Shown here piece by piece: positions 4,926-52,031 of a stretch of 61,049 nucleotides of DNA. The notes beneath the pieces were generated by a model. That model was not told the DNA's origin, did no database searches, and saw only the letters and a program-made list of their open reading frames with translations. Both the position numbers and the translations under genes were made by a program. The DNA is from Selenomonadaceae bacterium (GTDB lineage Bacteria; Bacillota; Negativicutes; Selenomonadales; Selenomonadaceae), in contig JAFSXD010000001.1 of the NCBI GenBank assembly GCA_017444245.1, forward strand, positions 1 through 61,049, read 5' to 3'. Each line of letters starts with the position of its first letter. Within the stretch, counting starts at the first letter, position 1.

Positions 4926-4967
4926 TTAGATCGATAGATCGATGGATCGATGGATCGATAGTTAGTT
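4926..4967. repeat. 8-nt-period boundary repeat (RGATCGAT)x4 followed by AGTTAGTTG
   Basis: The sequence ttagatcgatagatcgatggatcgatggatcgatagttagttg follows the dnaB stop codon directly. Confidence 0.9.
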
Positions 4968-4969
4968 GA

Positions 4970-5012
4970 AAAAAAAATCGCCGAAGAAAATTTTTCGGCG
5001 AGTGTAAAAAAA
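4970..5012 (-). terminator. rho-independent terminator between convergent genes
   Basis: The stem is tcgccgaa (4978-4985) paired with ttcggcga (4994-5001). An A-run on the plus strand gives a T-run on the minus strand. Confidence 0.6.
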
Positions 5013-5014
5013 TT

Positions 5015-5668
5015 TTACTGATAATCTGACGGCAAAGTTAATCTTCGTTGTTGTCCGTCGAAATGCATTTGAGTGATTCGCGCCGCCTTCGACGATTCCA
5101 TTTTCGCGATAACTTGTCCTGCGTTGGCTTCGTTCATTTTTTGGAGAATCAAAACGACTGTGTCCAAGCTTACGTCGTTTAAAGCCTTCGCTGCTTCTTC
5201 CGGTTTCATGTTGTCGTAAATTCGCGCCAACTTAGAGATACGTTTTTTCTCTGCCGCCTCGCGTGCCTTCGCTTGCTCTTCAATTTGTTTTTGCGAAACT
5301 TTCACGTCTTTGGACTTACGCTCATCCTTTTTCTCTTCGGGTTTAGGTTCAGGCGGTTTGTTATTTTGCGCGACAACGGGCGCAGTTTCGGCGGGTTTAC
5401 TTTCCTCTTCGGGCTGTGGCTCGGGTTCAGGCGGCGGAGGCCACACCACGCCTTCAGGCACAGCAAAATATTCAAACTGCTGACCCGTGCCAACCAGCGG
5501 CAACCTGTACAAGCCGACCGTTTCATTTACCCAATCAACTTTTTCTTTTTCGATGACTTCGTAGTAAATGCACGCGGCAAACGCACTGATACCGACCAAC
5601 GCCAAGAAAACTATAACGAAAAGTCCAATCAAAATTTTTTTTAAGATGCCACCTTTTTTTTTCGCCAT
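5015..5668 (-). CDS. membrane-anchored MgtE_N-domain protein, YlxF/MotE/FlbB-like
   Basis: It has an N-terminal TM helix, a Pro/Glu-rich linker (PPPPEPEPQPEEE), and a C-terminal ARIYDNMKPEEAAKALNDVSLDTVVLILQKMNEANAGQVIAKM segment. It lies downstream of the fliJ-like gene, as in fla/che operons. Confidence 0.6.
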   Translation of the reverse strand: MAKKKGGILKKILIGLFVIVFLALVGISAFAACIYYEVIEKEKVDWVNETVGLYRLPLVGTGQQFEYFAVPEGVVWPPPPEPEPQPEEESKPAETAPVVAQNNKPPEPKPEEKKDERKSKDVKVSQKQIEEQAKAREAAEKKRISKLARIYDNMKPEEAAKALNDVSLDTVVLILQKMNEANAGQVIAKMESSKAARITQMHFDGQQRRLTLPSDYQ

Positions 5669-5689
5669 TTCGCCACACCTTTCAAATCG

Positions 5690-6466
5690 TTAGCCGCTGA
5701 TAATATCCATTATGCGCCCAACATAATTTTGAGTTTCACTGTACGGAGGGACGCCGCCATATTTTTGAACTGCGCCCGGCCCTGCGTTGTACGCGGCAAG
5801 AGCATGTTGAACGTTGCCGTTGAATTTGTCAAGCATTTGCCGCAAATAAATTGTCCCGCCTTCAATGTTTTGCGCTTTGTCATAGGGATTTACTCCAAGC
5901 GCGGCGGCAGTCTCCGGCATCAGTTGCATTACGCCGATTGCGCCGACGGGAGAAATTTCATTTTGATTCATGTCTGATTCGGCGATTGCAACTGCTCTGA
6001 CGAGTGAGGGAGAAACTCCGTTGCGACGTGCAGAAAGATTTATCAAATCTTCTGTGGAAGAATCGCGCGATTGTTCAAAGTTTGAATCCTTGTCCGGCGC
6101 GTCGTTGGGGCTTGGGGCTTTTAACTCCTCAAAAATTTTTTCGATTGACGAAGTCGACAAAATATTTGGCGTTGCGACGTTACCGGAAGTCAATGCGGCG
6201 ACAAAATCTGTGACGTTGACGGCGTCTTTTTTATTTGCGGACAAATCGGAAGAATTTTTTTCCGAAGCGGCGGCGTCTTTGTTCTCATGAATTTTTTCTT
6301 GACGAGAAATTTCGGCGTCCAATTTCGTTTGAAAGTCCGCACTGATTTTGTCCGCGCTCAAATTCTTTTCCGTCTCGACAAATTGATTTTGAATTGACGC
6401 TATCCGATTTTGAATCTGCGCAATTCTTGCGGGAACTCCGATTCGTTCAATGGGGTTTATTTCCAA
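5690..6466 (-). CDS. lytic transglycosylase (SLT domain) protein
   Basis: C-terminal motifs AESDMNQNEISPVGAIGVMQLMP and AAYNAGPGAV are present. Confidence 0.8.
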   Translation of the reverse strand: MEINPIERIGVPARIAQIQNRIASIQNQFVETEKNLSADKISADFQTKLDAEISRQEKIHENKDAAASEKNSSDLSANKKDAVNVTDFVAALTSGNVATPNILSTSSIEKIFEELKAPSPNDAPDKDSNFEQSRDSSTEDLINLSARRNGVSPSLVRAVAIAESDMNQNEISPVGAIGVMQLMPETAAALGVNPYDKAQNIEGGTIYLRQMLDKFNGNVQHALAAYNAGPGAVQKYGGVPPYSETQNYVGRIMDIISG

Positions 6467-6507
6467 AACATAATCATCCTTTCAAAAATTTAACGGCTCA
6501 AAAAATT

Positions 6508-6954: not shown

Positions 6955-6966
6955 CGCGGTAAGATT

Positions 6967-10681: not shown

Positions 10682-10721
10682 CATTACGCATTGCGCGTTA
10701 CAAATTACACATTACGCATTG
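10682..10721. repeat. 7-nt-period boundary repeat (CATTRCG/xxTTACA)
   Basis: The units read cattacg cattgcg cgttaca aattaca cattacg cattg. The repeat overlaps the prfC stop codon. Confidence 0.75.
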
Positions 10722-12340: not shown

Positions 12341-12940
12341 TTAATTAAGCGTTATACCAAATTTTTGAATCAAGTCTTTGTGATTTTTGAGTTGCTCCAT
12401 GAACTCGGGCAAAATATTTTTCAAGTATGCAAGCTCCTGCGGATTTTCGGTAAGTTCAATACTTTTTGCGTAGCGGACATACGCAAGGAACGTTTCAAAA
12501 TCTTCTTGAGTATATTTTTCTGCTACGTCGTCGCCAAAATATTTTCGAAGATTTTCGCTGATAATGTAGCAGAAAGGTCCTCCATGCTGACTTTTAAAAA
12601 ACATAGAAATTTGCGAGTCAATGTAGATTGCATTTAATTTGTTGAACTGGTTTAAGCACAGTTGCACTACATTCAAATCACAAAATCGCGGAATTAAAAT
12701 ACTCTCCGTTTCATCTTTAAGAAATATTGTATTGTGCGAAACCGATCCGACTGTTGAAGCAAAAATTTCAGAATTTGCCAAAATATTGAGCTGTGCCTCA
12801 AGAGGAACCCTTTCAGGCTGTATTATGGAATAGCCCTTAGACTGAAAATAATTTGCCAGTCGTTCTTCTCCTATTTGTTTACCAAAACCGTGAAAAAAGT
12901 AGAACTTTTTTTCCGGCAGTGTCGAAAAATTTTTCTGCAT
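12341..12940 (-). CDS. C-terminal fragment of a frameshifted GT61/DUF563 glycosyltransferase
   Basis: EKKFYFFHGFGKQIGEERL..LNILANSEIFASTVGSVSHNTIFL is present. The same frame is open back to the G-tract (QKLLYTTEYAETIDRVRNFMQ..). Confidence 0.75.
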   Translation of the reverse strand: MQKNFSTLPEKKFYFFHGFGKQIGEERLANYFQSKGYSIIQPERVPLEAQLNILANSEIFASTVGSVSHNTIFLKDETESILIPRFCDLNVVQLCLNQFNKLNAIYIDSQISMFFKSQHGGPFCYIISENLRKYFGDDVAEKYTQEDFETFLAYVRYAKSIELTENPQELAYLKNILPEFMEQLKNHKDLIQKFGITLN

Positions 12941-13536
12941 AAAGTTTCGTACTCTGTCAATAGTTTCAGCATATTCGGTGGTGTAAAGCAGTTTCTGCCC
13001 CCCCCCCCCGCGTAGAAAAGCGACGGGTCAGGTAGAATCACGTTTTGAAATTTGGTTGCGTGTGTAATTATGTTTAATCTCGAAAGGTCTACTTCCAAAA
13101 CTTGAAGAAGTTTTACAAAATTGGGAATTATGTTCTGTCCCATTAAATTTACTGCCAGCTTACAAGTTGAAAAGTATCTTTTGTAAGGATCGCTAGTCAA
13201 AAACCACAATCTTTTTATGTGATCTGTCAGACAATGCCCCCAAACAGAATTAAAAGTTCCAAGAAAAATCACAGTTTCTGGACTAATTCGTAAATCTTCA
13301 TTTGGAGTGTAAACGTCGCCAATGCCTTCATGGACTGAAGTTCCTTCTACGAAATTTCCTTTGCCGTCAATGATGCCACCGAAACCATTTAATCCAAGAC
13401 GACCATCTAAATCTAAGTGTGGCAAAATTGTTCCATTCTCGATAATTCGGAAATGCAATTTTTTATCGGAGAAATGAGTTTCGTTTAGCTTGTCGCCAAA
13501 AAATTCTCTGTTATACAAACCGTCGTAGTTTACCAT
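12871..13536 (-). CDS. N-terminal fragment of the GT61/DUF563 glycosyltransferase
   Basis: FLGTFNSVWGHCLTDHIKRLWFL is a GT61-type GH..D...RL motif. The tail after the G12 tract is out of frame. Confidence 0.7.
   Translation of the reverse strand: MVNYDGLYNREFFGDKLNETHFSDKKLHFRIIENGTILPHLDLDGRLGLNGFGGIIDGKGNFVEGTSVHEGIGDVYTPNEDLRISPETVIFLGTFNSVWGHCLTDHIKRLWFLTSDPYKRYFSTCKLAVNLMGQNIIPNFVKLLQVLEVDLSRLNIITHATKFQNVILPDPSLFYAGGGGRNCFTPPNMLKLLTEYETLCRKIFRHCRKKSSTFFTVLVNK
12998..13009 (-). repeat. homopolymer G12 (minus strand) that splits the GT61 gene
   Basis: I counted twelve C on the plus strand. The upstream frame reads ..LFYAGGGG then goes out of frame. G13 or G10 would join it to QKLLYTTEY.. 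Confidence 0.9.
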
Positions 13537-13551
13537 AAAAATTTTTCCACC

Positions 13552-14466
13552 TTATTGAGTTATGATTTTGCCGACGAGTTCAGAAATATTTTTCAGCCGG
13601 CGACGTTGCAAATATTTTTCCAAGTCGGCGATTATTTTCATAATTACGTTTGGGTCGGCGAAATTTGCCGTACCGATTGCGACAGCAGATGCCCCCGCCA
13701 AAAAAAATTCCACAGCGTCCGCGCAACTGCGAATGCCACCCATGCCAATCACGGGAATTTTTACTGCTTGAGCAACTTGATAAACCATGCGAACCGCCAC
13801 AGGTTTCACCGAGCCGCCGGACAATCCGCCCGTAATATTTCCAAGCGTCGGTTTCCACGTCTCAATATTAATTTCCATGCCAATCAGCGTGTTTATCAGC
13901 GAAACGCAATCCGCCCCCGCGCCTTCCACAGCCAAAGCAATTTCCGCAACGTCCGTGACATTTGGGCTTAGTTTCACGATAACGGGCTTGTCTGTATTTT
14001 TTTTCGCCGACGCCGTCACTGATGCCGCCGCGTTCGGATTCGTCCCAAAAATAATTCCGCCGTCTTTCACGTTCGGACATGAAATATTTAATTCAATCGC
14101 CGCCACCCCGTCAACGTCCAAAAGTTTTGCAAGCTCGCCGTAATCTTCGACGCTTGAGCCGCTGATATTTACGATGACGTTCATGCCAAAATTTTTTATG
14201 CGCGGGAGAATTTCCGATAAAAATTTTTCCACGCCGGGATTTTCCAGCCCGATTGAATTTAACATTCCCGACGGCGTCTCGGCAATGCGCACGCCCTTAT
14301 TTCCGTTGCGCGGCTTCAGCGTCAAGCATTTTGTAACGACGCCGCCCATTTGTGCAAGGTCTACAAAATTTGCAAACTCTTCACCAAATCCAAACGTCCC
14401 CGACGCGGAAAGTATCGGCGTTTGCATTTTTATGCCGCAAATTTCTGTTTTTAAAAGTTCACTCAT
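13552..14466 (-). CDS. pyrD: dihydroorotate dehydrogenase, catalytic subunit (class 1B)
   Basis: ILSASGTFGFGEEF, NVIVNISGSS and ELNISCPNV motifs. I prefer the ATG at 14466 (AAGGGA RBS) over the track start at 14508. Confidence 0.9.
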   Translation of the reverse strand: MSELLKTEICGIKMQTPILSASGTFGFGEEFANFVDLAQMGGVVTKCLTLKPRNGNKGVRIAETPSGMLNSIGLENPGVEKFLSEILPRIKNFGMNVIVNISGSSVEDYGELAKLLDVDGVAAIELNISCPNVKDGGIIFGTNPNAAASVTASAKKNTDKPVIVKLSPNVTDVAEIALAVEGAGADCVSLINTLIGMEINIETWKPTLGNITGGLSGGSVKPVAVRMVYQVAQAVKIPVIGMGGIRSCADAVEFFLAGASAVAIGTANFADPNVIMKIIADLEKYLQRRRLKNISELVGKIITQ

Positions 14467-14545
14467 CAAAATTTCCCTTAAGCAATTATTTTTGTCACTA
14501 TTACCCAACGCATGAGCGTGACGCGAATGTTACGAACTTTTTTTA

Positions 14546-14581
14546 CTGACTAACTAGCGATCTGGCGATCTAACTAACTAA
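14546..14581. repeat. 8-nt-period boundary repeat (CTAACTAG CGATCTGG CGATCTAA CTAACTAA)
   Basis: It lies between the pyrD start and the flavoprotein stop, and overlaps that stop codon. Confidence 0.85.
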
Positions 14582-15221: not shown

Positions 15222-15248
15222 TCTAATTCTAAGCTCTCCAAAAAAATT

Positions 15249-16016: not shown

Positions 16017-16056
16017 TTAATTTCGCCCCCTTCTTCCTGTGCCAGTCGTTGAAAAA

Positions 16057-16743: not shown

Positions 16744-16773
16744 GAAATAAAACCTCCGTTTGTTAGTGATTAG

Positions 16774-16808
16774 CTTAAAGCTTGAAGCTTGAAGCTTAAA
16801 GCTTCTAG
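16774..16808. repeat. 7-nt-period boundary repeat (CTTRAAG)x4 plus CTTCTAG
   Basis: The units read cttaaag cttgaag cttgaag cttaaag cttctag. It lies between the FkbM start and the carB stop. Confidence 0.9.
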
Positions 16809-16812
16809 CGAC

Positions 16813-20055: not shown

Positions 20056-20091
20056 TTAGATCGATGGATCGATAGATCGATGGATCGATGG
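20056..20091. repeat. 8-nt-period boundary repeat (RGATCGAT)x4
   Basis: ttagatcgatggatcgatagatcgatggatcgatgg fills the whole upp-carB intergenic gap, up to the carB RBS. Confidence 0.9.
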
Positions 20092-34577: not shown

Positions 34578-34630
34578 AGTCTTACTTCCTTAAAAAAATT
34601 AGGGAATAGGAAGAAGAAAATTTTTCCAAT

Positions 34631-34652
34631 CCCTACTCCCTACTGAATACTG
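34631..34652. repeat. 7-nt-period boundary repeat (CCCTACT CCCTACT GAATACT)
   Basis: It lies between the purM start and the small secreted-protein gene. The neighbouring tagggaataggaag (34600-34613) is partly complementary to it. Confidence 0.7.
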
Positions 34653-36486: not shown

Positions 36487-38472
36487 GTGAAGGTGGTTTT
36501 ATTGAGCAAAATCAATGTGCTTGACGGCGACACCGTGACAAAGATTCAAGCTTGGGCACATTTTAACAGCCTGTCGTTCTGCGTCAAAGAACTCGTTGAA
36601 AATTCTATCGACGCCGGCGCAACGCGAATTGAAATTGAAACCATTGACAGCGGAAAATCTTTGATTCGCGTAACGGACAACGGCGTTGGCATGACTGCCG
36701 AAGACGCCCTGCTTGCCGTGCAGAAACACTCTACAAGCAAAATTGTAAGTGCCGAAGACTTGATGAATATTTCCACGCTCGGATTTCGCGGCGAAGCTCT
36801 GGCAATAATCGCGGGCATTTCTAAATTTTCCCTTCAAACGCGTACAGAATCCTCCGAACTCGGCACGCTCATAAAAATTGACGGCGGCAAACTCGTTGAT
36901 AATCTAAGCGTCGGTTGCAAAGTCGGTACGACAATTCGCGTCGAAAATTTATTTTTCAACATTCCTTCGCGGTCCGCTTTCATTAAGTCCGGCAGTACTG
37001 AAAATACTAAAATTCATGATTTGGTTACCCGTCTTGCAATAAGCCGCCCGGATATTTCTTTCAAGCTAATCAGCAGTAACCGCAATTCGTTCACGACGCC
37101 CGCAAATGGAAAAATTCTCGACACTTTAACCGAACTTTACGGCGTTGACGTTGCCAAATCCATGCTCCCCTTCGATGTCACCGCAAAAGATTTCAAAATT
37201 TCCGGCTACGTCAGCAAACCAACTTCATTAACTGCCAGACGAATCCGTCAATTCGTAATTGTCAACGGGCGGGTTATTACCGAATGTTCAGCGATTTTCG
37301 GCGCGATTGATGATGCTTACATGTCTCAAACTCAAGTGTCGAAAAAGGCAGGCTATCCTTACGTCGTTTTGCGAATTGACGCTCCAAAAGATTTTGTAGA
37401 CGTGAATGTACAGACGCAAAAGTTGCAAATAAAATTTCGTGACGAAGGCGAAATTTATAGCCACGTTCGCCATGCAATTCGTCAAGCTTTTTCGACGGAA
37501 AAAAATAATCGCGACCTTCGCCAAGTTGCCGCCATGCCGGAAAAATTTCAATTTACGCCGATGAATCTCGATGAAACTTTTGGCAGGCAAAACGTCCGCG
37601 ACGAAAAAATAATTGTGCCGAATGCCGCCAAGCCCGCGTTGACTGTCGGGGAAATGCGCGAAAAGTTGGGGCGCAATGACGACTTGCCGAAAGATTTTTT
37701 TGAAGAGGAATTAGAAAAGTTTGACGGCAACTCTAATCAGGAAAATCAAACGACGCAAGAGAATCAAACCACGAACGAAACTTTCAGCGACGAAAATTTT
37801 TTTGACCAGCCGGAAAATGAAACGCCAACTCAATCTGAATTTGAGGAGTTCGCGCAGGAAAATTCTGATTCGCTTGAACTTCTTCAGCCGATTGGACAAG
37901 TGAGTTTGTGTTACATTGTTGCGCAGACTGCCAAAGATTTATTTTTGATTGACCAGCACGCGGCGCACGAACGGATTTTGTTCGACAAATTGAGCAATTA
38001 CGCTGATGAAATTCCCGCGCAGATTTTGTTGATTCATCAAAATTTGAAATTCGATTCGCGCGAAACGGCGACGATTGAAAATAATTTGGAACTCTTTGCA
38101 AAGTTAGGTTTTTCAATGGAACTTAGCGGAGAAAATCAATTCCGCTTGACTTCCGTACCTGCCGATGCCGCCAAAATGGACGCAAGCGAAACGTTACGCG
38201 AAATTATTTCCGACTTGCCCGCAATCGATAACGCCGCGCAGGTTGACGACGAACGCCGCGCCGAAATTGCCGCCGATATTCGCAAAAAATTTATCGCTAT
38301 TGCGTCGTGTCGTGGCGCGATTAAGGCGGGACAAAAACTTTCAATCAGTGAAATGGAAATTCTTTTGAAAAATTTAAGTCAAACGCCTCATCCGTATACT
38401 TGTCCGCACGGTCGCCCGACGATTATAAAATTTTCCGCCAAAGATTTAGCGAAAATGTTTAAGAGAGTTTAG
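36487..38472 (+). CDS. mutL: DNA mismatch repair protein MutL
   Basis: VKELVENSIDAGAT and TLGFRGEAL motifs, and a C-terminal dimerisation domain with QHAAHERILF. The start may be the TTG at 36502. Confidence 0.92.
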   Translation: MKVVLLSKINVLDGDTVTKIQAWAHFNSLSFCVKELVENSIDAGATRIEIETIDSGKSLIRVTDNGVGMTAEDALLAVQKHSTSKIVSAEDLMNISTLGFRGEALAIIAGISKFSLQTRTESSELGTLIKIDGGKLVDNLSVGCKVGTTIRVENLFFNIPSRSAFIKSGSTENTKIHDLVTRLAISRPDISFKLISSNRNSFTTPANGKILDTLTELYGVDVAKSMLPFDVTAKDFKISGYVSKPTSLTARRIRQFVIVNGRVITECSAIFGAIDDAYMSQTQVSKKAGYPYVVLRIDAPKDFVDVNVQTQKLQIKFRDEGEIYSHVRHAIRQAFSTEKNNRDLRQVAAMPEKFQFTPMNLDETFGRQNVRDEKIIVPNAAKPALTVGEMREKLGRNDDLPKDFFEEELEKFDGNSNQENQTTQENQTTNETFSDENFFDQPENETPTQSEFEEFAQENSDSLELLQPIGQVSLCYIVAQTAKDLFLIDQHAAHERILFDKLSNYADEIPAQILLIHQNLKFDSRETATIENNLELFAKLGFSMELSGENQFRLTSVPADAAKMDASETLREIISDLPAIDNAAQVDDERRAEIAADIRKKFIAIASCRGAIKAGQKLSISEMEILLKNLSQTPHPYTCPHGRPTIIKFSAKDLAKMFKRV

Positions 38473-38496
38473 ATCGATGGAGCGATGGATCGTTGG
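38470..38496. repeat. 8-nt-period boundary repeat (degenerate RGATCGAT units)
   Basis: tagatcgatggagcgatggatcgttgg overlaps the mutL stop codon. Confidence 0.75.
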
Positions 38497-38539
38497 TACA
38501 CTTTTTCTAAAATTCTATCGATCTAACAAGGAGTTAAAC

Positions 38540-41848: not shown

Positions 41849-41850
41849 TC

Positions 41851-41889
41851 AAAAAAGAGTTCCCCGAATTTGAGGAACTCTCTTTTTTT
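41851..41889. terminator. bidirectional rho-independent terminator
   Basis: aaaaaAGAGTTCC-ccgaatttga-GGAACTCTcttttttt lies between convergent addB and the giant gene. Confidence 0.8.
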
Positions 41890-41984
41890 ATGCACCGCCC
41901 GAAGGCGGCAACTTCGCTACCCTAACCGCTACGGATTAGAAGTCGTTTAAAAATCTAGCCGAAAAGTCTAATCGGATTCGTCAA

Positions 41985-44900
41985 TTACTCCCAATGACGA
42001 TTGCCGGTGTTGACGGATTTAATATTCTGCCAGCCGCCGTTGCCGTCTGAAAGTCTGAAGTTGGTCTCTGTGCCGACACCCGTCACGACAACTCCGCCGC
42101 CGTCCTTAAGCACAACGTCGATTCTGCCGCTGGAAATAGCCGTCTTATCATTGTCGATGTCGTCCAAAGTTACGTCATAGAGCCAGACGAGGTCTTCAGT
42201 GCCAACAGTGGTAATCGTATCCGTGCTGGAACGGTAGACGCCTTCACTGGTGGTGTAGCCGTAGGACTTGAAGAAGAAGAAGGTCTCTTCGCCGCCGTTG
42301 CTACCAACGAGTGAATTGGTTTCGCCGCCGCCGCCCCACAGGCTCGTGGAAGTGTTGCTACCGCCGGACAAGATCGTATTGTTGGACGCGCCGCCCGCCA
42401 ATGTCAAATTGCCGTTCTGGACTGAAGACGCGTTGACCATTCCGATGCCGCCGTAGGAGACACTGTCAAGGCGTGAATCGTTCAGCCAAATGTTGACGTT
42501 GGACGTATCGGAGGAAACATTCAGAACGTCGCGCGGACGGCTGTTGCTTACGCCGCCATAGTAAATGTCGGTTTCGCCGTCATATGTGAAGGTGTTGACG
42601 CTGTTGCTGACACCAAACTTGATGTTGTAAATCTTGCTGTCGTTCGCAAATTGCGCTCTTACAGCTTTGTGATCGCTCGTCGTAAAGTCGCCGCTGATAA
42701 CAACAGTTTCGTCGCCCGAGAGGGAAACTTCCAATCTGGTTGAAGTCGCGCTGACGCCTTTGTAATTGTCACGATCGCCCAAGTACAGCAAGTCTGCCGA
42801 AGAAACGTTGACGTCTTGATCTTGACCCTTGTAGAAGTTGAATCCGGTAATCGTAGTTCTGCCGCTGCTGTAGGTTACGCCGTTAGAACTGCCGAAGTAG
42901 AAGTTGTTGCCGGATTTTGTAGTATCGTTGCCACCGGAAACGAGCACGTCATTGCCGCCGCCGACTGCAACATACTTGCGAGAACCTGCGTCTGCACTGC
43001 CGGAAACCGTAATGCTTTCGTTAGCACTTGAACCCCAAACAGTAGCTCTGGCTTCGCTTGCGACGTTGAGTTTCGTGATGTTGGAAAGTTTCGCAGAACC
43101 GAGCGTGACTTCAAACGCAGTGGTTACGGAATCAGTTACGTAAATGCCGCCGGCTTTTTCGCCTTTGTAGTAAGCACTCAAATCAGCATTCGTGCTAACC
43201 GTTGCCGTTGCATCAGGAGCGATGAAGGATACAGGCGTTCCGTTGACCAAGAATCTGTACGCGCCGTCAACCGTCGACAAACCGTTAAAGTTGATTGAAG
43301 CGTTGCCGCTGGAGGCTACAACAGCATCTCTCAATTTGAAGGAAAGGCTGTCAATGCTGTCCGCGAGCAGGACGTTTGCGCCGCTGTCCGCATCAAAGCC
43401 GCTCTTCCAACCGTAGACATCAGTCTTGCCGCTTGTGAGGGTAATCGTTGCGCCGCGTTGTCCCGATCCGCTGTCCGCACTTGCAAGCGAAACTGTATCA
43501 GTACCTGCGCCCGGATTAATCGTATCGTTAGGTCCTGCAACAATCGTGTCGTTCAAGGAAGAACCGACGACTGTATTTTCTGCGCCGCCGTTGATGCTGG
43601 AAATCATGAGCGCGCCGCCGTTGATTGTAATTTCGCTGGCGTCAAGCAGACTGCCATAGTTGCCCGCCCAGATAAGATTCTTTCTGTCGCCGACGTTCGC
43701 ATTTGTAATAATCGCCTTCGTTGCCGTAGCCGGATCGTAATCTGAACCGCCAACCGTAATTGTTGAGCCGTTAGCTATCGCAATCTTGTTGCCGTCAAGC
43801 TGAACGTTATCCGGAGTAAGTCTTGCACTGGTTGAAAGTTTCGTCGCAACGATAACGTCTCTGTCATCAAAGCTGTAGTCCGCAATTTCAAAAGCGTTCG
43901 TGTCATAGAAGTAGTCGATACCTGCGCCGCCTTCGATGTAATCTGAACCGGAACCGTAGATCGTATCAGAGCCCGAGCCGCCCAAAATGGTTGCCGCGCC
44001 GCCTCTGTTGTAAATGTACGAGCCATTGTCGCCAGCTTTGACGTAGTTGTTACCTGTCGCCTTAGGTCCAATCAAGATTGAAACATTTCTTGCGCTGGTG
44101 CTGCCAAGAATCGTGTGGTTGGTTGCGAATGCGGCAATATCGGAATCAGTATTCATACCGACAGCAATAAGGGTGTTCGGGCTACCGGTTGCGTCGATAA
44201 CCGCAGTGCGAATCGTGGAAACTCCCGTGCGCAGACCTTCAAGATATTCAACGTTAATCGGGTTGCTGATGTAGGACTGCAAGGTTATGTTGCGCGGGAA
44301 TGTGCCGTCAGCTGCACCAAGCGGTTCGTCGCCGTAAATGTTGACGCCCGTTCCTTGAGCAACAGTTTCAGGAGAATCAACCGTTGCACTTGCATAACCG
44401 GCAACTGTTCCATATGTCCCATCGAAAGCTTGCGTGGTTTCGTTATAAATGTTGTAGAAGTCGTGGAAAGCCTCAACCGTCGTGTTGCCGCCGTTCAAGC
44501 TGCTTGCCAACTGATTAACCAAGCTGTCGCGGTCGATACGGATTTGAGCAACAACAGAGTCTTCAGCAGTGACATTGCCGATGCTGTCAACATACAAGTA
44601 ACCGATACTGTCATTGACTTCAACCGTTGCACTTGAACCGACGCTGTAAACGCCCGCGCCAACCGTAATTGTTGAGTTCTTCGCAATGCCGCCGGTAATT
44701 GTGACATTCGGTTTTGCACTGCCGGATTTGCTTACGTACATCTGAATTGCGGATGCCGTTGAATCCAACACGCCGTCGCTACCGCCGTTCATGGTTACGC
44801 CAACGTCATTAATCGCCATAGCAACCGTATCTGTGGACGCCGCCATAGCTGAATCGTAAGTGAAGCCCGCCGCAAAGACGCTGTCGCTCGCAGTCTTGAC

Positions 44901-47276
44901 TGTGTCGCCAACCTTCAAGCCGCCGACGCTTACGATAGCATCATTTTCACCGGAAACGATGTAGGCACTGTCAAGGTTGGAGCTTGAAGATGCGCCCAAT
45001 GTGACTTCTGCCGCGTTAACCGTGACTTTAGCCGTACCGCCGGAAGAAACCGTAGAATCAATATCGTAGTAAACTGTGCCGCCGGTTACGCTGTAAGCAT
45101 CGCCGTCAACAACGTCGTTAACCGTGATTGAGGATGAGCCGCCAAGCGTGAAGTCAACCGCGCTAACTGTATTCGTAAGTTTCGATACGTCAAATTTATC
45201 GTTAATCGTGAAGTGGCTGTCGCCTGAAACCGTTGCGCCGGAGTTCAAACTCGTGATTCCTGCGAGACCCGCAACGGAAACGTCTGAATCGAGTTGTACA
45301 ACGATTTCATTATTGCTGTCGTGAGCAACGACACTTGCGCCGTTAAAGCTACCGCTAATTGTATTAGCTTCGCCGGCAACTGTTACTGTAGCGTCAGCCG
45401 CCATAACTTTCAAGGAATCGCCTGCGCCGAGTGATACACCTGCGCCGGTTGAATCCATAACTACCGCGCCGACTGATGCGCCCGAGACCGTCCAAGCTGT
45501 GCCCATAACTTCAACGCCGGAAAGTGTTGCACTGGAAGGTGCGCTGATTGTCATGTTGCCCGTCAAGCTGGAAACTGCGGAGACTGACGCGCCGTTTACA
45601 CTGCTTGCCGTGAGTATCGCATAGACGCTGTCCGTTGCTCTTGCAAATGTTGCAGTAACTCCGCCAACGTTAACTGTACGTGCGCCGCTACCGCCCTTTA
45701 CGAGCCAGTTGCTACCTTCGTTGAGTGCCGACGCTGCAGTTACGAGTGCTGAACTGTTGAGAGATACACTCTGTCCGCTGCTCACCGCAAGGGTATCGCC
45801 CGCCGCGCCTACAACTGTTCTTGCTTGACCGCCGGACAACAACATTGTGCCTGCGCCCGTACCGGAATTGACTGTGATGTTACCCGAAGCGTCGAGTACT
45901 GCATTAATCGTCGCGGCACTGTCATCTTCAAGATCAACATCCCAAGAAGAGCCGCTGATAATTCCCAAAGCATCGTGATCGCCGACCGCGTTAATTGTCA
46001 CGTTGCCGCTTTCAGGATTGAAGAGAGCCGCCTGCGCACCGGTGGCACCTGCTGTGATAGTGCCTTGCACGCTGTCAAACGCAACCGTATCATTACCGAG
46101 TTGAACAGCACCTGCACTGCTTGCAACTGTCCAACGTCCATTCGCCGCAAGAGCGTCAACCGCTTTGATTACGGATGAGTCAGTAGATTGACTTACGACA
46201 GAGGCGGTTGAACCGCTAGCAAGAGCAACTGCGCCGCCGCTTGCACCGTCGCCAACAGAGAACACGCCGGCATTGTTCGCATGCGCCGTCATCAACGTGC
46301 TGTCTACCGGGTAAACTTCCGCCTGCGTCGTAGCAACACCGTTGAGAATTACGCCGTTTACGTCTACTGTATCTCTGGGGCTTGAACCTGAACTTGAGAA
46401 TTCTACGCCTGCGCCATTTTCTACGTTCAACGCAAGATAATTGCCTGCGCCCTTAGTAGCCGTGAATGATTCGCCAACTGCGGCGGCACTCAAAGCACCA
46501 AATACTACGTTGTTGCCGTTAGATACGTTCCAAATTTGATTTGCGTCAACAGAAGAGAGCGCCGCATTGCCTGCCGCCTGAATCGTTACTGCGTCGTTTG
46601 AGTCTGTCGAACCTGTCAACGTAACCGCATTACTACTCAAAGAGACATTGATTGACGCGCCGTTAAGAGTTTGACGGAACTGTGCCGGTGCGGCAAGTGT
46701 AGCCTGCACTGCGCCGCGCAAGCTGGAATAATTTACGGCATTGTTGCTTGCCGTCATGCCAAGAGACGCGGCATTTGAAACAGCCACCGTATCAAGCAAG
46801 GAGTCATTGTTGGTATATCTGACCAAGAAAGTATCAGCTTCGCCGCCGCCGGTCAACCAGAGAGGACTGCTAACAGAGACATTCTCGGCGAACGTCAATT
46901 CTGGAGTAGTTGATCCTATTGAAGCTTCCTCAGCTGTGCCAACGCTGGCGTATCCGTAGGCTGTAACAGATTTATTTTCTCCCTTAGTGATTACAGCGGC
47001 ATTAGCCGGAACACTAGCCTCACCACTGCTGAAGGCGTAGACAGTTGCGGAAGAAGTTACCGTATCAGTGCGATAAATAACGCCGTCAACATCGACTGTA
47101 TCGCCTGTAACGGTCGTAGGTGTACCACTATCGTCGACGCCACCATTCACCGAAATAGCGCCACTGGATGCCCTGATGGTTGGGTTAGCGTCCAAAGCAA
47201 ACAGTTGCAAATCAAACTCCCAATTTTTCGTTGTCATAAAGAATGGCGTCAAGACCTCGTTACATGAGAGGGACAA
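41985..47276 (-). CDS. giant Gly/Ser/Thr/Ala/Val-rich surface/secreted protein with RTX-type GGxGxD repeats
   Basis: GGSGSDTIYGSGSDYIEGGAGIDYFYD is present and there are no Cys residues. The start is either the TTG at 47276 (11 nt after AAGGAGG) or the ATG at 47237 (MTTKNWEFDLQLFA..). The first ~80 codons of the track ORF lie in the leader. Confidence 0.75.
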   Translation of the reverse strand: MSLSCNEVLTPFFMTTKNWEFDLQLFALDANPTIRASSGAISVNGGVDDSGTPTTVTGDTVDVDGVIYRTDTVTSSATVYAFSSGEASVPANAAVITKGENKSVTAYGYASVGTAEEASIGSTTPELTFAENVSVSSPLWLTGGGEADTFLVRYTNNDSLLDTVAVSNAASLGMTASNNAVNYSSLRGAVQATLAAPAQFRQTLNGASINVSLSSNAVTLTGSTDSNDAVTIQAAGNAALSSVDANQIWNVSNGNNVVFGALSAAAVGESFTATKGAGNYLALNVENGAGVEFSSSGSSPRDTVDVNGVILNGVATTQAEVYPVDSTLMTAHANNAGVFSVGDGASGGAVALASGSTASVVSQSTDSSVIKAVDALAANGRWTVASSAGAVQLGNDTVAFDSVQGTITAGATGAQAALFNPESGNVTINAVGDHDALGIISGSSWDVDLEDDSAATINAVLDASGNITVNSGTGAGTMLLSGGQARTVVGAAGDTLAVSSGQSVSLNSSALVTAASALNEGSNWLVKGGSGARTVNVGGVTATFARATDSVYAILTASSVNGASVSAVSSLTGNMTISAPSSATLSGVEVMGTAWTVSGASVGAVVMDSTGAGVSLGAGDSLKVMAADATVTVAGEANTISGSFNGASVVAHDSNNEIVVQLDSDVSVAGLAGITSLNSGATVSGDSHFTINDKFDVSKLTNTVSAVDFTLGGSSSITVNDVVDGDAYSVTGGTVYYDIDSTVSSGGTAKVTVNAAEVTLGASSSSNLDSAYIVSGENDAIVSVGGLKVGDTVKTASDSVFAAGFTYDSAMAASTDTVAMAINDVGVTMNGGSDGVLDSTASAIQMYVSKSGSAKPNVTITGGIAKNSTITVGAGVYSVGSSATVEVNDSIGYLYVDSIGNVTAEDSVVAQIRIDRDSLVNQLASSLNGGNTTVEAFHDFYNIYNETTQAFDGTYGTVAGYASATVDSPETVAQGTGVNIYGDEPLGAADGTFPRNITLQSYISNPINVEYLEGLRTGVSTIRTAVIDATGSPNTLIAVGMNTDSDIAAFATNHTILGSTSARNVSILIGPKATGNNYVKAGDNGSYIYNRGGAATILGGSGSDTIYGSGSDYIEGGAGIDYFYDTNAFEIADYSFDDRDVIVATKLSTSARLTPDNVQLDGNKIAIANGSTITVGGSDYDPATATKAIITNANVGDRKNLIWAGNYGSLLDASEITINGGALMISSINGGAENTVVGSSLNDTIVAGPNDTINPGAGTDTVSLASADSGSGQRGATITLTSGKTDVYGWKSGFDADSGANVLLADSIDSLSFKLRDAVVASSGNASINFNGLSTVDGAYRFLVNGTPVSFIAPDATATVSTNADLSAYYKGEKAGGIYVTDSVTTAFEVTLGSAKLSNITKLNVASEARATVWGSSANESITVSGSADAGSRKYVAVGGGNDVLVSGGNDTTKSGNNFYFGSSNGVTYSSGRTTITGFNFYKGQDQDVNVSSADLLYLGDRDNYKGVSATSTRLEVSLSGDETVVISGDFTTSDHKAVRAQFANDSKIYNIKFGVSNSVNTFTYDGETDIYYGGVSNSRPRDVLNVSSDTSNVNIWLNDSRLDSVSYGGIGMVNASSVQNGNLTLAGGASNNTILSGGSNTSTSLWGGGGETNSLVGSNGGEETFFFFKSYGYTTSEGVYRSSTDTITTVGTEDLVWLYDVTLDDIDNDKTAISSGRIDVVLKDGGGVVVTGVGTETNFRLSDGNGGWQNIKSVNTGNRHWE

Positions 47277-47654
47277 GACGCACTCCACCTCCTTAAAACA
47301 TTTACAAAAAACTTTTCGCCGTTGAGGCGAGTGCGGGCTTTTTGACAATGCGTAGAAGTTGAACATACGCATTCCTAATCTTAGGGACGCCGCCCGATAG
47401 CGTTCATTAACGACGCTTGCGCTCTCCGCGAAGGAAGCTGAACTCGTCGATTCAAAAAATTTCTTACCCCTCCTTCTTGCGGATACGCACTGCGCCAAAT
47501 ATTTCATCCGACACCGCAAACCACGAAGTCGGCAGTAGATTAGAAATGGAACTCAAAGAAAGAGGATGAGTCCGCGACCAAGCTTTTGGCGAGTGATCAA
47601 TTCGCCGCCAGGTCAACACGTCGCCCGAGACCTCCTTGTCTCAATCGCGGCTAT

Positions 47655-47744: not shown

Positions 47745-47807
47745 TTAGATCGATAGATCGACAGATCGATAGATCGCCAGATCGATAGTTGTTAGTTGAT
47801 AGTAGTT
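47745..47807. repeat. 8-nt-period boundary repeat, longest copy in the window
   Basis: ttagatcgatagatcgacagatcgatagatcgccagatcgatagttgttagttgatagtagtt. Confidence 0.9.
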
Positions 47808-47834: not shown

Positions 47835-48521
47835 CTACCCCTTACTTTCTAAATTTTTTATCTGCCAATCGATTGGAGTTTCGCCGATTGACGACAAAAA
47901 ATTATTCACGCGTGAAAAAGGTTTACTGCCGAAAAATCCTCCGCTTGCAGAAAGTGGGCTTGGGTGTGCAGATTCTACGATAAAATGTCTTGGGTTGGTA
48001 ATCATAATTTTTTTTGCGCGCGCAGGTCTGCCCCAAAGGACAAATGCAATCGGGCGTTCGCGTTCGTTGAGTAGCTCAATAATTCTGTCCGTGAAAATTT
48101 CCCAGCCTTGTCCGCTGTGGGAGTTCGCTTGATGTGCGCGGACAGTTAAAACCGCGTTCAAAAGTAAAACGCCTTGATCCGCCCAAGATTTTAAGTAGCC
48201 GTTATCCGGAATGGCGCAACCCAAATCAGAATTTAATTCCTTAAAAATATTTCGCAATGACGGCGGCGGTTGAACTCCTTCTTTGACGGAAAAGCTAAGC
48301 CCGTGCGCTTGTCCTTCTTCGTGGTAGGGGTCTTGTCCCAGAATGACAACTTTCGTGTCGGCGTAACTCGTGAAGTGCAAAGCGTTGAAAATATCGTACA
48401 TATCCGGGAAAATTTTTCGCGTGCGGTATTCATGAATTAAAAATTGCCGCAACCTTTGGTAGTACGGTTTTTCAAGTTCGGCGTCCAAAAAATTTGCCCA
48501 ATCGTTTCTAAAAATTTGCAT
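47835..48521 (-). CDS. ung: uracil-DNA glycosylase
   Basis: [10 protein letters not shown] and HPSPLSA motifs. The ATG at 48521 follows a GAGGGAA RBS. Confidence 0.92.
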
Positions 48522-49680: not shown

Positions 49681-49712
49681 AGCGATAGATCGATAGATCG
49701 ATGGATCGATGG
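49681..49712. repeat. 8-nt-period boundary repeat (RGATCGAT)x4
   Basis: agcgatagatcgatagatcgatggatcgatgg lies between divergent pfkA and the CYTH gene. Confidence 0.9.
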
Positions 49713-50178: not shown

Positions 50179-50179
50179 A

Positions 50180-50222
50180 CAAAAAACGCTACCAAAAATT
50201 TTTGATAGCGTTTTATTTTTTC
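50180..50222. terminator. bidirectional rho-independent terminator
   Basis: aaaaaaCGCTAcCAAAAATTTTTGaTAGCGttttatttttt. Confidence 0.7.
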
Positions 50223-50235
50223 GTTCGCAAAAAAA

Positions 50236-50670
50236 TTATCTTCCGGCAGAAACGCCGTCTTTGATGATGTTGGATAATTTGCCGTCAACTTTTTCTGAAT
50301 GTTCGATTCTCAAAATTTCACTACGAAATTCTTGCAATCCTCTAATCGCCGCGTCGAGTTGTTTCAGTGTAAAAACTCCTTCGGTTTCAGCAAGATTTTT
50401 TAAAGACTTCCTGCAACTTGCCGAAAGTTTTTCCAAAAGTTTTTCGCGGCGTTCCTTACGTGCTTTAAATTCTTTTTCAAGATTTATGAGTTGTTCCATT
50501 GAATGAACTGCCGCTAAATAATCGTACTTCAACTGCGCTGATAATGGTTCGCCGCCTTCGGGGGTGACAGTGCCGTTTTTCAGCGCGTCTTGAAATCTTT
50601 CAAACGTTCCCACGCTAAACCCTCCCGAAAAATTTTTTCCTATTCTAAACCAAAAATCTTTTGACGGCAA
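50236..50670 (-). CDS. hypothetical coiled-coil protein
   Basis: ORF only, with a TTG start. I recognised no motif. Confidence 0.4.
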   Translation of the reverse strand: MPSKDFWFRIGKNFSGGFSVGTFERFQDALKNGTVTPEGGEPLSAQLKYDYLAAVHSMEQLINLEKEFKARKERREKLLEKLSASCRKSLKNLAETEGVFTLKQLDAAIRGLQEFRSEILRIEHSEKVDGKLSNIIKDGVSAGR

Positions 50671-50679
50671 GAAAAATTT

Positions 50680-51027
50680 TCAATACGCCCCTTCTAACGG
50701 ATCTTTGCCAAAACGATTTGGTCCGTCAGTTCCTTTCGCGAACATGAGGTAGAGCCCCAAGAGAAAGCCGACAACCGGAATCAAAGCGATAAAGCCGAAA
50801 TAGCCGCTCTTGTCCAAGTCGTGAAGTCTTTTGACAAGCAATGAAATACTTCCCGCAATCACTGCCAAGCCGACGACCATTCCAAAAATTGCGATTAACG
50901 TGCTTGATGAATGTTCGGCAAGATATCCCATTATCGTCGAAATTAAAGAGAGTGAAAAAGTGCCGATGATGTACGGTTTACGGTTCAATCTTCCTTCAAG
51001 CGAGAAAAAAATTTTTTGTAAGTCCAA
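50680..51027 (-). CDS. DUF805-family inner-membrane protein
   Basis: FSLEGRLNRKPY .. VKRLHDLDKSGY .. NRFGKDP. There is a TTG start at 51027 after an AGGAGG RBS. Confidence 0.8.
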   Translation of the reverse strand: MDLQKIFFSLEGRLNRKPYIIGTFSLSLISTIMGYLAEHSSSTLIAIFGMVVGLAVIAGSISLLVKRLHDLDKSGYFGFIALIPVVGFLLGLYLMFAKGTDGPNRFGKDPLEGAY

Positions 51028-51028
51028 A

Positions 51029-51901
51029 TTAAATTCCTCCTGCCAAATTAATTTGCGGAAAATTTTCCAGCAAATTATTTTTTTGTGCAAGCCGATAAAA
51101 AATTTTCAGCGCGTCAATGCCTTCGTTCGTCAAATCCCATTTGATGACGCCGCCCAAATATTTATCCAACTCGTCAAAGGTAAACGGCTTTTCGTCCAAA
51201 ACGGAATTTATCGCCGCCGCCTTTTTCTGCAGACCGAATTTTAAACCTTCATGGATTTTTTTGCAAACTTTTTCAAGAAGTTCAGGAAAATCTTGGGCAA
51301 ATTTTTTTCGCGCCGCCCAAACAGCATAAACCATTTGCCGCCCCGTCAACTTATGCCATTCGTTGCCCAAATCGTAATAAAAAATTTTTTCCTGCCTGTG
51401 CAAGTGCAAGTAAAGTGCTTCGTCACCAATGAACAACGCGGCGGTTGCGTCACGCGGCACGGGATTTTTCACGTCTAAATTTTCTACGACGTAATTCGGT
51501 TTAAGATTGTAACTTTCCGCCAAAATTATTTTCAAAAGACAATGTGCCGTTGCAGACTTCGACGTTATCGCGACAATTTCGCCGTCCAAGCGTTCAATCG
51601 GTTTTCGCGAAAGCAACATTATGCTGGTGACGTTTCCTTCTGCGCGAATACAAATTTTCGGAACGAGCAAGAGATTTTCATTTTGGCGGGCGTATTCAAT
51701 CGACGACATTAAGGCAACGTCGAGAGAGCCGCTTTTCATCTGCGCGTTGACGAAAGCGGGAACGCCCATTGCAACCGAAAAAATTTTTGCGGCGTCCGTC
51801 GTGTAGAAATAATTCAGCGGCAGTACATTCAAAAAATTTATGTGACCAATTTTCGGTTTGTAATCGCTACTCAAAAAATTTTTCACTTCCCGACTATCCA
51901 T
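51029..51901 (-). CDS. mqnA: MqnA-type menaquinone (futalosine pathway) biosynthesis protein
   Basis: KIGHINFLNVLPL near the N-terminus, SSIEYAR, and periplasmic-binding-like fold pattern (PF02621-type, from memory). Confidence 0.65.
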   Translation of the reverse strand: MDSREVKNFLSSDYKPKIGHINFLNVLPLNYFYTTDAAKIFSVAMGVPAFVNAQMKSGSLDVALMSSIEYARQNENLLLVPKICIRAEGNVTSIMLLSRKPIERLDGEIVAITSKSATAHCLLKIILAESYNLKPNYVVENLDVKNPVPRDATAALFIGDEALYLHLHRQEKIFYYDLGNEWHKLTGRQMVYAVWAARKKFAQDFPELLEKVCKKIHEGLKFGLQKKAAAINSVLDEKPFTFDELDKYLGGVIKWDLTNEGIDALKIFYRLAQKNNLLENFPQINLAGGI

Positions 51902-52031
51902 CGATCCATCGATCTATCGATCCAACGATCTAACTTATGTGACCAATTTTCGGTTTGTAATCGCTACTCAAAAAATTTTTCGCTTCCCGACTATCCATCG
52001 ATCCATCGATCTATCGATCCAACGATCTAAC
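51838..52031. repeat. 2 x 97-bp tandem duplication covering the mqnA start, its RBS and the GATCGAT-type repeat
   Basis: 51838-51934 and 51935-52031 differ at one position (cacttcc vs cgcttcc). This explains the two track ORFs that both start MTNFRFVIATQKIF. Confidence 0.95.

Follow-up and report, generated by a model that had tools for sequence, protein, structure and literature searches.

The window analysed here is a stretch of 61,049 nucleotides from a rumen-type Selenomonadaceae bacterium (assembly GCA_017444245.1, contig JAFSXD010000001.1, positions 1 to 61,049), and the element in question is a set of short tandem arrays with units of 7 or 8 nt that lie between its genes, at their edges and, in one case, within a gene. 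The window has a G+C content of 44% and is ~89% coding by simple tiling of open reading frames (ORFs), with ~11% non-coding. As assigned by Pfam, the neighbours of the arrays are housekeeping genes: dnaB, prfC, ndk, pyrD, pyrK, carB, upp, purM/N/C/E, mutL, addB, pfkA and an mqnA-like gene. CarB is 93-94% identical to proteins labelled 'MAG: Selenomonadaceae bacterium' (MAG, metagenome-assembled genome) and 83% identical to those of Selenomonas bovis and Quinella sp. Quinella, a large rumen member of the family, was considered as the source, giant bacteria being said to be rich in repeats, and was set aside because its published bins have 49-56% G+C and its CarB is no closer than 83%. The array set is real and non-random, and it belongs to a known but mechanistically unexplained class of repeats. 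Scattered reports of dispersed heptamer and octamer arrays, in cyanobacteria, Beggiatoaceae, Xanthomonas, Geobacter and Chloroflexus, go back to 1990, and no origin or function of the arrays is agreed; no report of such repeats in Selenomonas, Selenomonadaceae or Negativicutes was found in the literature searched.

Arrays were detected with Tandem Repeats Finder (TRF), and 100 dinucleotide-preserving shuffles served as the null. The original prediction, made by reading the sequence alone, had listed 12 arrays, and inspection found every one of them in place. TRF alone picks up 10 of the 12; the two that it misses, at 14546-14581 and 38470-38496, are degenerate or composite and are recognisable by eye. 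The array at 34631-34652 has only 2.1 copies, yet it makes up one arm of a pair of inverted heptamers, and the arrays at 51897 and 51994, which had been counted separately, are both real but are two copies within a single 97-nt tandem duplication. A 13th array found by TRF, CTACAAC x7.9 at 1912-1966, lies in frame within a decarboxylase-family gene. Nine period-7/8 arrays with a TRF score of at least 40 occur in the window, compared with a mean of 0.03 in the shuffles (maximum 1; n=100). The TRF arrays have periods of 7 and 8 nt, 3-8 copies and 75-100% matches, and 16-mer higher-order repeats were also called. Both the tandem iteration (a 1-9-nt unit in at least about 3 copies) and the over-representation are those of long-unit simple sequence repeats (SSRs).

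The dominant family is the octamer T(A/G)GATCGA, which occupies nine sites when its variants AGATCGCY and TAGTTAG are included; through these variants, the arrays at 14546 and 41813 belong to the octamer family on the other strand. The remaining families are the heptamers CATTRCG, AAGCTTR, CCCTACT and CTACAAS, giving at least five unit types over 13 sites in 61 kb, and 23 distinct canonical heptamer units are present in the 38 heptamer arrays of the window and of loci from two related MAGs. Such dispersal of several unit families over many loci is a property of the short tandemly repeated repetitive (STRR) sequences of heterocystous cyanobacteria. Rfam gave no family at any array, there are no tRNAs, and the 7-8-nt units abut without spacers, unlike the 24-48-nt repeats and unique, similarly long spacers of CRISPR arrays. 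The arrays and the terminators that adjoin them are listed in Table 1.

Table 1. Tandem arrays of the window and adjoining terminator-type elements (SD, Shine-Dalgarno motif; dG, folding free energy).
Feature	Coordinates	Strand	Setting and remarks
Heptamer array CTACAAS x7.9	1912..1966	+	Inside Orn/Lys/Arg-decarboxylase-family gene 796-2208; TRF
Octamer array T(A/G)GATCGA x4.4 with TAGTTAGTT tail	4926..4967		Convergent spacer, 1 nt past dnaB stop 4923-4925; TRF
Canonical intrinsic terminator, 8-bp stem and T9	4978..5001	-	Terminates gene 5015-5668(-), separating it from the 4926 array
Degenerate heptamer array CATTRCG x5.6	10682..10721		Between prfC and ndk; TRF
Composite of TTAG runs and octamer variant AGATCGCY	14546..14581		Head of ~110-nt spacer
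Heptamer array AAGCTTR x4.7	16774..16808		Between carB stop 16813-16815 and SD/ATG of Methyltransf_21 gene (start 16743)
Octamer array x4.1 (16-mer TAGATCGATGGATCGA x2.1)	20056..20091		Fills the spacer from upp stop (20092-20094) to carB SD GGGAGG/TTG 20040
Inverted heptamers TAGGGAG TAGGGAT / TCCTATTCCCTA, 13-bp stem then T-run	34590..34652	-	dG -22.0, z -4.1
Degenerate octamer array 38470-38496 with inverted partner CTATCGATCTAA (38515-38526)	38469..38527	+	mutL-addB junction
Composite CTAACTAA + CTAGCGAT x2.2 + CTAACTAA	41813..41848		Convergent spacer; holds addB stop 41822-41824
Bidirectional terminator-type hairpin: A-run, 15-bp stem, T-run	41849..41890 (approximate)		Adjoins 41813 array; serves 1844-aa gene 41985-47519(-)
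Octamer array x5.4, variants GATCGAC, GATCGCC, TAGTTGT-type tail	47745..47807		27 nt past stop 47835-47837 of UDG-family gene
Octamer array x4.4	49681..49712		Divergent pfkA / CYTH spacer; then SD GGAG and ATG 49729
97-nt tandem duplication x2, 1 mismatch	51838..52031		Arrays at 51897-51934 and 51994-52031

The arrays are additions to minimal spacers, placed between a stop codon and the next Shine-Dalgarno (SD) motif, promoter or terminator, with one array in a permissive linker. Twelve of the 13 lie outside ORFs and together they occupy about a fifth of the short gene-to-gene spacers; when ~76 arrays are pooled, the great majority fall between ORFs or at their edges, with 88% of the DNA coding. 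Orientation of the octamers relative to transcription is ~12:11, so that a mainly intergenic placement without strand preference, as in long-unit SSRs, is seen here too. The tight association with gene ends that the original prediction proposed is borne out: among 37 arrays in co-directional spacers of the window and the two MAGs, the upstream stop is overlapped or lies no more than 5 nt away in 19, whereas 6.0 are expected under uniform placement and 10.2 when 12 nt are kept for the ribosome-binding site (P about 1e-4). Arrays lie closer to stops than to starts (median distance 10 vs 24 nt), and an SD motif is kept between array and start codon in six of the seven arrays that precede a start. 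Junctions that carry arrays are co-directional, convergent and divergent in the ratio 8:2:1, which is roughly proportional to the spacer types in the window (about 40:6:6).

The stop codons of mutL, addB, prfC, the FMN-reductase-like gene and the condensation-domain gene lie inside arrays, and those of dnaB and upp adjoin them. At prfC, the last two codons and the TAA stop (10712-10714) form the first minus-strand unit of the 10682 array, and the ndk SD AAGGAG follows. The FMN-reductase-like gene takes its TAG stop (14574-14576) from the 14546 array, and the first TAG of the 38470-38496 array is the mutL stop; the latter array and its inverted partner form a hairpin with a 14-bp stem (dG -18.8, z -2.9), downstream of which lie the SD AAGGAG and the addB ATG at 38540. 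The annotated ATG of the mqnA-like gene (51899-51901) is also inside an array, as is the TAG stop of the condensation-domain gene (52027-52029); a database look-up of the mqnA-like protein gave no record. Arrays that contain an ATG or lack stops extend ORF calls: the longest-ORF start of addB (ATG 38477) falls inside the array and is an artefact, the real start being 38540, and the longest-ORF start of carB (TTG 20046) is likewise an artefact, the second TTG at 20040 being confirmed by a 1075-aa protein cluster.

The 97-nt unit at 51838-52031 consists of the first 59 nt of the mqnA-like gene and a 38-nt octamer array. On one side the duplicated unit stops at the outer array edge, and the junction between the copies has 2 nt of microhomology, a pattern that fits fork stalling or template switching at arrays. 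The suggestion that arrays are recombination hot spots therefore has one supporting case, in which a duplication starts exactly at an array edge.

The arrays had also been proposed to substitute for terminators, which is not supported: canonical terminators, at 4978-5001 and about 41849-41890, adjoin arrays, and the presence of the former, as a separate element, means that the 4926 array is not the terminator. In L003 (L-numbers denote contigs or loci of relatives or of other samples compared with the window), an array lies between a stop codon and a separate terminator, and operon-internal arrays are followed directly by an SD and a start codon with no T-run. Only the inverted pair at 34590-34652(-), of which 34631-34652 is one arm, combines a stem-loop with a U-run, and it is the intrinsic terminator of gene 34666-35007(-); the other arrays have no T-run after them or adjoin a separate canonical terminator.

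The comparison with relatives is the decisive line of evidence and shows that arrays are gained, lost and replaced between species and fixed within a species. Sister species were compared at a CarB identity of 93%. At the junction of carB and the Methyltransf_21 gene, L076 has a 32-nt spacer without an array, L077 has AGGGCTT and ACTATTC arrays, and the window has its AAGCTTR array, while the stop, GGAGG and ATG around the insert are kept in all three. Between the FMN-reductase gene and pyrD, L077 has a spacer of 4 nt and the window one of ~110 nt, in which the array comes first and changes the C-terminus of the FMN-reductase-like protein from ELILG* (L077) to ELVIS*. Array counts are zero in L076 and in L078 (23 kb each), four in L077 and two, as an inverted pair, in L079. 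In L003, the orthologue of the CYTH gene has no array at the junction equivalent to 49681 and carries a CTTAATC array after its stop instead. Conservation of position, which had been proposed as a check, thus fails, since orthologous junctions have either no array or unrelated units, and a conserved function of any sort is not supported.

Within the species, two ENA metagenome assemblies contain contigs that match parts of the window at 99.5-99.8% identity, and the arrays at 1912, 4926, 14546 and 16774 are identical in those two samples despite a flank difference of 0.2-0.5% (4926-4967 in L001 and L002, 14546-14581 in L080 and L081, 16774-16808 in L080). The copy number of these four arrays does not differ between close strains, and they are therefore not phase-variable on that scale. 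The coding array at 1912-1966 specifies the heptapeptides LQATTYN/LQPTSYN/LQPTSSN in a hypervariable linker, as judged by alignment to PDB 2x3l and to orthologues. Linker length is hypervariable among decarboxylase orthologues and several carry their own, different 7-aa repeats, indicating that arrays invade coding DNA where they are tolerated.

The pyrimidine operon at 12341-20040 (carB-pyrK-pyrD-pyrF-pyrE) is itself a mosaic relative to L076, L077 and L078, with accessory genes that differ by relative. The genes wedged into it encode Methyltransf_21, FMN reductase, Uma2, DUF4258, GIY-YIG endonuclease, alpha-amylase and Peptidase_M15_4 proteins, and in L078 pyrK directly follows carB. In the conspecific L080, one indel in 5540-6466 (99.5% identical; window 13552-14466) splits pyrD into ORFs of 50 and 246 aa, which is either a strain-level frameshift or an assembly error.

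The unit families extend beyond the window, with RGATCGAT, CATTRCG and AAGCTT types found in related MAGs; given also the enrichment of arrays at stop codons, the refuting condition set by the original prediction does not hold. When 185,579 species genomes were scanned for three RGATCGAT-type units in a row, at least 70 loci were returned; among the matches listed, RGIG3739 and RGIG4933, two Selenomonadaceae MAGs from the rumen, account for 25 loci, Acidobacteriota MAGs for several per genome, and many phyla for single loci. Control octamers of the same design were as common as the target in viral contigs (3 loci for the target vs 4, 3 and 5), so that a pan-bacterial special status of RGATCGAT was rejected, single matches in other phyla are background, and only multi-locus genomes, namely the two Selenomonadaceae MAGs and several Acidobacteriota MAGs, count as having the family. 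Octamer matches in Metamycoplasmataceae look like long microsatellites of another kind. The 130 kb of RGIG3739 and RGIG4933 that were fetched hold dozens more heptamer arrays (CTTAATC, ACTCTTC, CCTAATC, TAGTGAA, AGCTTTx, ATTACGC), of which the AGCTTTx and ATTACGC types are common to the window and the two MAGs. These arrays are nearly all between ORFs, and a spacer often combines two to four different arrays as a mosaic. A scan of metagenome contigs for AddB, which served as a density control, returned only two relatives, at 68-70% identity, with no conserved synteny and essentially no arrays.

The usage of TAG and TGG units differs by genome. The TAG:TGG ratio is 7:7 in the window, 40:30 in RGIG3739 (which also has TAGTNNN units), 18:0 in RGIG4933, 0:17 in a Solibacteraceae MAG, 0:15 in the Acidobacteriota MAG MFD06229 and 11:1 in Vicinamibacterales MAGs. 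These genome-specific dialects imply that units are copied or homogenised within a genome and do not arise by independent local slippage. Two local origins were considered and rejected: seeding of the CATTRCG array from the 3' end of prfC, because ATTACGC is present at an unrelated locus in RGIG3739 (L036), and derivation of GATCGAT from restriction fill-in, which by reasoning would yield a period of 4 and not 8.

Of the known repeat systems, the STRR heptamers had been named as the nearest precedent, and they are the right class. As in STRR, several short-unit families occur at many loci, nearly all intergenic and often within operons, alongside a hyper-abundant short palindrome (HIP1 in cyanobacteria, AAAATTTT here). 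The arrays are not STRR in the strict sense, since the host is a member of the Selenomonadaceae (Negativicutes), the units are others and the main unit is 8 nt: the heptanucleotide arrays are CATTRCG, AAGCTTR, CCCTACT and CTACAAC, the commonest family is an octamer with nested palindromes, and none of the STRR1-3 units CCCCAGT, TTGGTCA and CAACAGT is in tandem in the window. Contingency SSRs, with units of 1-5(7) nt in ORFs or promoter spacers of surface or restriction-modification (R-M) genes, vary between sibling strains, as in Haemophilus and Neisseria. The arrays share with them short tandem units that are in principle prone to slipped-strand mispairing, but they flank housekeeping genes, lie between stop and SD and not in the ORF or -35/-10 region of surface, antigen or R-M genes, and show no differences between strains that are 99.5% identical.

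Long-unit SSRs are over-represented in bacterial intergenic DNA according to Mrazek 2007, as cited in PMC4692102. Of the GGGAATC (Xanthomonas) and GGGGAYT (Nostoc) SSRs, 89-93% are intergenic; they lie nearer the 5' ORF, neither strand is favoured, inverted pairs occur, and both length and sequence differ among close relatives (Rehm et al. 2015, PMC4692102). In anatomy the agreement with such published heptamer families is close, and the present arrays resemble them in lying mostly between co-oriented ORFs near the end of the upstream ORF, in their inverted pairs and in their lack of strand bias. The Xanthomonas and Nostoc repeats, however, are G-rich and quadruplex-forming with one dominant unit per genome, and most loci are shared by two Xanthomonas species (PMC4692102), whereas the units here are TA-rich or palindromic, fall into many families and occupy positions that are not shared with sisters. 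TAACTGA repeats of marine Beggiatoaceae and some Cyanobacteria and Bacteroidetes (MacGregor 2015, PMC4679880) also form hundreds of intergenic arrays of 2-6 copies, with some in ORFs, and their unit recurs in unrelated phyla with no means of transfer evident (PMC4679880). They differ in lying a few nt upstream of starts at which a canonical ribosome-binding site is seldom found, and related heptamers are unrepeated (PMC4679880), whereas the arrays here hug stops, retain the SD and comprise many unit families; their median distances and the six of seven retained SDs are not those of repeats that precede starts without a ribosome-binding site, and TAACTGA x2 has no occurrence in the window. Geobacter metallireducens has hepta- and octanucleotide families of 3-5 tandem units at about 16-49 loci, both inter- and intragenic (PMC2700814). 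They likewise are 7-8-nt tandem families that often form pairs on opposite strands, but their units are GC-rich and are read as global-regulator binding sites, with no stop-codon association reported (PMC2700814). Repeats of the form (GATAGRA)n are present in Chloroflexus (PMC6749651). The arrays of the window are not TAACTGA-type repeats, CRISPR, contingency loci or, in general, terminators.

Arrays are dispensable at any given junction, free in orientation and homogenised within genomes. We consider it likely, with a probability of about 60%, that they are STRR-like, lineage-specific families of dispersed long-unit SSRs that are mostly neutral or selfish filler with no conserved regulatory role. 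A few units would serve as a seed, copied ectopically to a new site, for which template switching, gene conversion or mobilisation in the manner of MITEs (miniature inverted-repeat transposable elements) or REPINs (paired forms of the repetitive extragenic palindrome, REP) are candidate routes. The array would then gain or lose blocks of one or two units through slipped-strand or unequal exchange, a block size suggested by the 16-mer higher-order units, and purifying selection would clear all insertions but those in dispensable DNA. Units rich in TAG or TAA may overwrite the last codons of a gene because they bring an immediate stop, which would account for the accumulation of arrays at stop codons. 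The stops, a start codon, a 21-codon pseudo-ORF, an occasional terminator stem and assembly breaks would be incidental side effects, as would imperfect hairpins (from ATCGAT and AAGCTT cores and inverted pairs) and slippage duplications at array edges.

Several points weigh against this neutral reading. The sequence base is 61 kb of this genome together with a biased set of loci from relatives, and the genes of the window are simple ORF calls. Non-functional DNA that persists against the bacterial deletion bias needs a high rate of gain, and no transposase or RAYT (REP-associated tyrosine transposase, IS200/IS605-like) gene is present among the window ORFs scanned against Pfam, a search confined to 61 kb. 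TAG/CTA is present in 19 of the 38 heptamer arrays, compared with 8-13% of random 7-mers, and TAA/TTA is enriched too, though TGA/TCA is not; this 4-6-fold enrichment of TAG/CTA in units could mean function or an insertion-site preference in place of a tolerance filter, as could the part of the stop adjacency that the SD constraint does not explain. Outside arrays, GATC is under-represented 2- to 30-fold across the clade (observed/expected ratio, O/E, 0.50 in the window and 0.03-0.39 in relatives), which makes GATC-dense arrays paradoxical: 30 of the 104 GATC sites in the window (29%) and 131 of the 198 in the RGIG3739 loci (66%) are inside arrays, and a purely neutral model does not predict this.

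Arrays may instead be RNA-level cis elements that, when transcribed in operons or 3' UTRs, act as hairpins (through their palindromic cores or as inverted pairs) or as sites for a multimeric RNA-binding protein in 3'-end stabilisation, processing or translation of the next cistron, which we consider unlikely. Since they lie in co-directional spacers, most arrays are probably transcribed, and the predicted folding of RGATCGAT-type arrays was found, although it is modest: palindromic-core arrays fold at -7 to -14 kcal/mol with z of -1 to -3.4, the 4926-4967 array among them (-11.3 / -9.7 kcal/mol). The 14-bp stem of the mutL-addB array and its partner lies a short way upstream of the addB SD, the pair at 34590-34652 forms the stem of a terminator, and two array pairs in RGIG3739 fold at -42 and -54 kcal/mol; translational roles have also been proposed for TAACTGA and the Nostoc heptamers. 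An RNA element, however, would be difficult to reconcile with orthologous junctions that are not conserved and carry different units, with the lack of orientation bias, and with more than 20 unrelated unit families in one genome, several of them non-palindromic and without a fold (no fold was obtained for the 10682 array or for the sense strand of the 1912 array). Sister species, moreover, manage without arrays.

The genome-specific unit dialects, the stop adjacency beyond the SD constraint and the presence of the same octamer at multiple loci in unrelated Acidobacteriota favour an active copying system, either a minimal mobile DNA or an array-adding enzyme, that would write 7-8-nt arrays beside stops; the GATC/CTAG-rich units, in genomes that elsewhere avoid these words, would then mark a functional link to methylation or restriction. 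This is a more speculative proposal, and we regard it as quite unlikely.

A role at the DNA level is distinctly improbable. In such a role, clusters of GATC, TCGA, ATCGAT or AAGCTT would be putative methylation or protein-binding platforms, nucleoid or replication marks, or R-M decoys, and the concentration of an otherwise avoided GATC in arrays, the independence of orientation that a DNA-level role predicts, and the richness of units in TAG/CTA while the palindrome CTAG is avoided elsewhere (O/E 0.27) would all fit. Many arrays with the same placement, however, contain neither GATC nor a palindrome (CATTRCG, CCCTACT, CTACAAC, CTTAATC, ACTCTTC), close relatives with equal GATC avoidance have no octamer arrays, and array positions are not conserved.

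Equally improbable, and compatible with the neutral reading, is that the arrays are MITE- or REPIN-like non-autonomous elements mobilised in trans, the solitary arrays of the window being decayed or half copies. A REP is one imperfect palindrome of 20-40 nt that a RAYT transposase mobilises. Like REPs, bacterial interspersed mosaic elements (BIMEs) and REPINs, the arrays are extragenic, dispersed and in part hairpin-forming, often follow stops or lie between convergent genes, and show concerted evolution within a genome, but they are tandem 7-8-nt arrays of variable copy number with no RAYT seen in 61 kb. RGIG3739 contains at least four composite inverted arrays in which a conserved centre, GATAGAAAACCATC, is flanked by variable R- and Y-oriented arms, and array ends recur (tTAGATCG... 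...GATCGATAGTNG); genome-specific dialects imply copying within a genome, and inverted array pairs are present in Acidobacteriota loci too. Arm length, however, differs from copy to copy, neither target-site duplications nor fixed termini were seen, the window has no transposase or RAYT gene and lacks the centre GATAGAAAACCATC, and many families consist of direct arrays that stand alone. Folding is seen in palindromic-core arrays and in inverted pairs, but length and copy number vary per locus and several families remain unfolded.

The original prediction further held that the arrays place stops in all frames and might be translational insulators, selected to give a stop in every frame past a gene and so to keep read-through or frameshifted translation out of the next cistron. 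Five stop codons lie inside arrays and two adjoin them, units are enriched in TAG and TAA, and the TTAG/CTAA-run arrays at 14546 and 41813 do close three frames on both strands. The transcribed strand, however, is closed in only three of the 12 arrays (10682, 14546 and 41813), and random intergenic windows of equal length close all three frames in 7-10% of cases. Over 41 arrays, stop triplets are in the sense strand only in 11, in the antisense strand only in 12, in both in 11 and in neither in seven, and stop-triplet enrichment is thus a strand-symmetric, DNA-level property. This symmetry largely refutes insulation, which is highly improbable; the random orientation of the octamers and the absence of arrays at the same junctions in sister species also speak against it.

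Several further features of the window and its relatives are described here for completeness. The avoidance of GATC is accompanied by that of other words: the window has three GGCC against about 188 expected, nine CTAG against 33 and five GAATTC against 24, the O/E of GATC outside arrays falls to 0.03 in L079, and word avoidance extends across L073-L079 and the RGIG loci, which suggests long-standing restriction pressure. Conversely, AAAATTTT has 127 copies in the window against 2.1 expected from base composition (about 60-fold), and AAAAATTTTT has 35 against 0.16 expected, whereas TTTTAAAA has only six. Copies of AAAATTTT occur in all codon frames (44/30/21) and in non-coding DNA (32), at an excess of 1.1-3.0 per kb in every relative examined (L073-L079 and the RGIG loci). 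AAAATTTT is a HIP1-like 'highly iterated palindrome'; no report of its excess was found.

An RAGATH-18 RNA (Rfam RF03064, 73.8 bits, E 5.6e-13) lies at 53909-53970(-), immediately upstream of the condensation-domain gene at 52027-53862(-), and an 88% identical copy is present in RGIG3739 (L016 5487-5558). The 1844-aa ORF at 41985-47519(-) has no Pfam domain, arrays on both sides and a near-consensus promoter-like site at 47682-47653, upstream of which lies the 47745 array. The ORF at 24493-26424(-) encodes a 643-aa repetitive protein with no Pfam match and contains a 42/81-nt tandem repeat at 25320-25752 (10.7 / 5.3 copies, 90% matches). A dispersed repeat of ~240 nt, 96% identical between 56433-56673 and 57185-57426 and with related pieces at 58750-58998, lies among short ORFs without a Pfam match and is unrelated to the 7/8-nt arrays; it carries an identical hairpin with a 13-bp stem on the minus strand at 56554-56585 and 57307-57338. 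An all-versus-all BLAST of intergenic segments was dominated by array matches and otherwise returned only these unrelated repeats at 56-59 kb. Among the ends of complete short-read RGIG3739 contigs, 6-7 of 30 fall inside 7/8-nt arrays (L021, L034, L045, L067, L070), suggesting that arrays break assemblies and add to MAG fragmentation.

A rich array set in rumen Selenomonadaceae extends a known repeat class to another phylum. The rumen ecosystem has thousands of MAGs, so that gain and loss are datable between near-identical and 93%-identical genomes. Array-borne stops and starts mean that automated calls of addB, carB and the mqnA-like gene are mis-started or extended, and arrays end many short-read contigs of related MAGs; they could also serve as strain or species markers. 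That the arrays are dispensable, orientation-free and homogenised narrows the explanations to a copying process combined with a tolerance filter, and an active copying system, if it proved true, would be a new mechanism of sequence insertion at gene ends.

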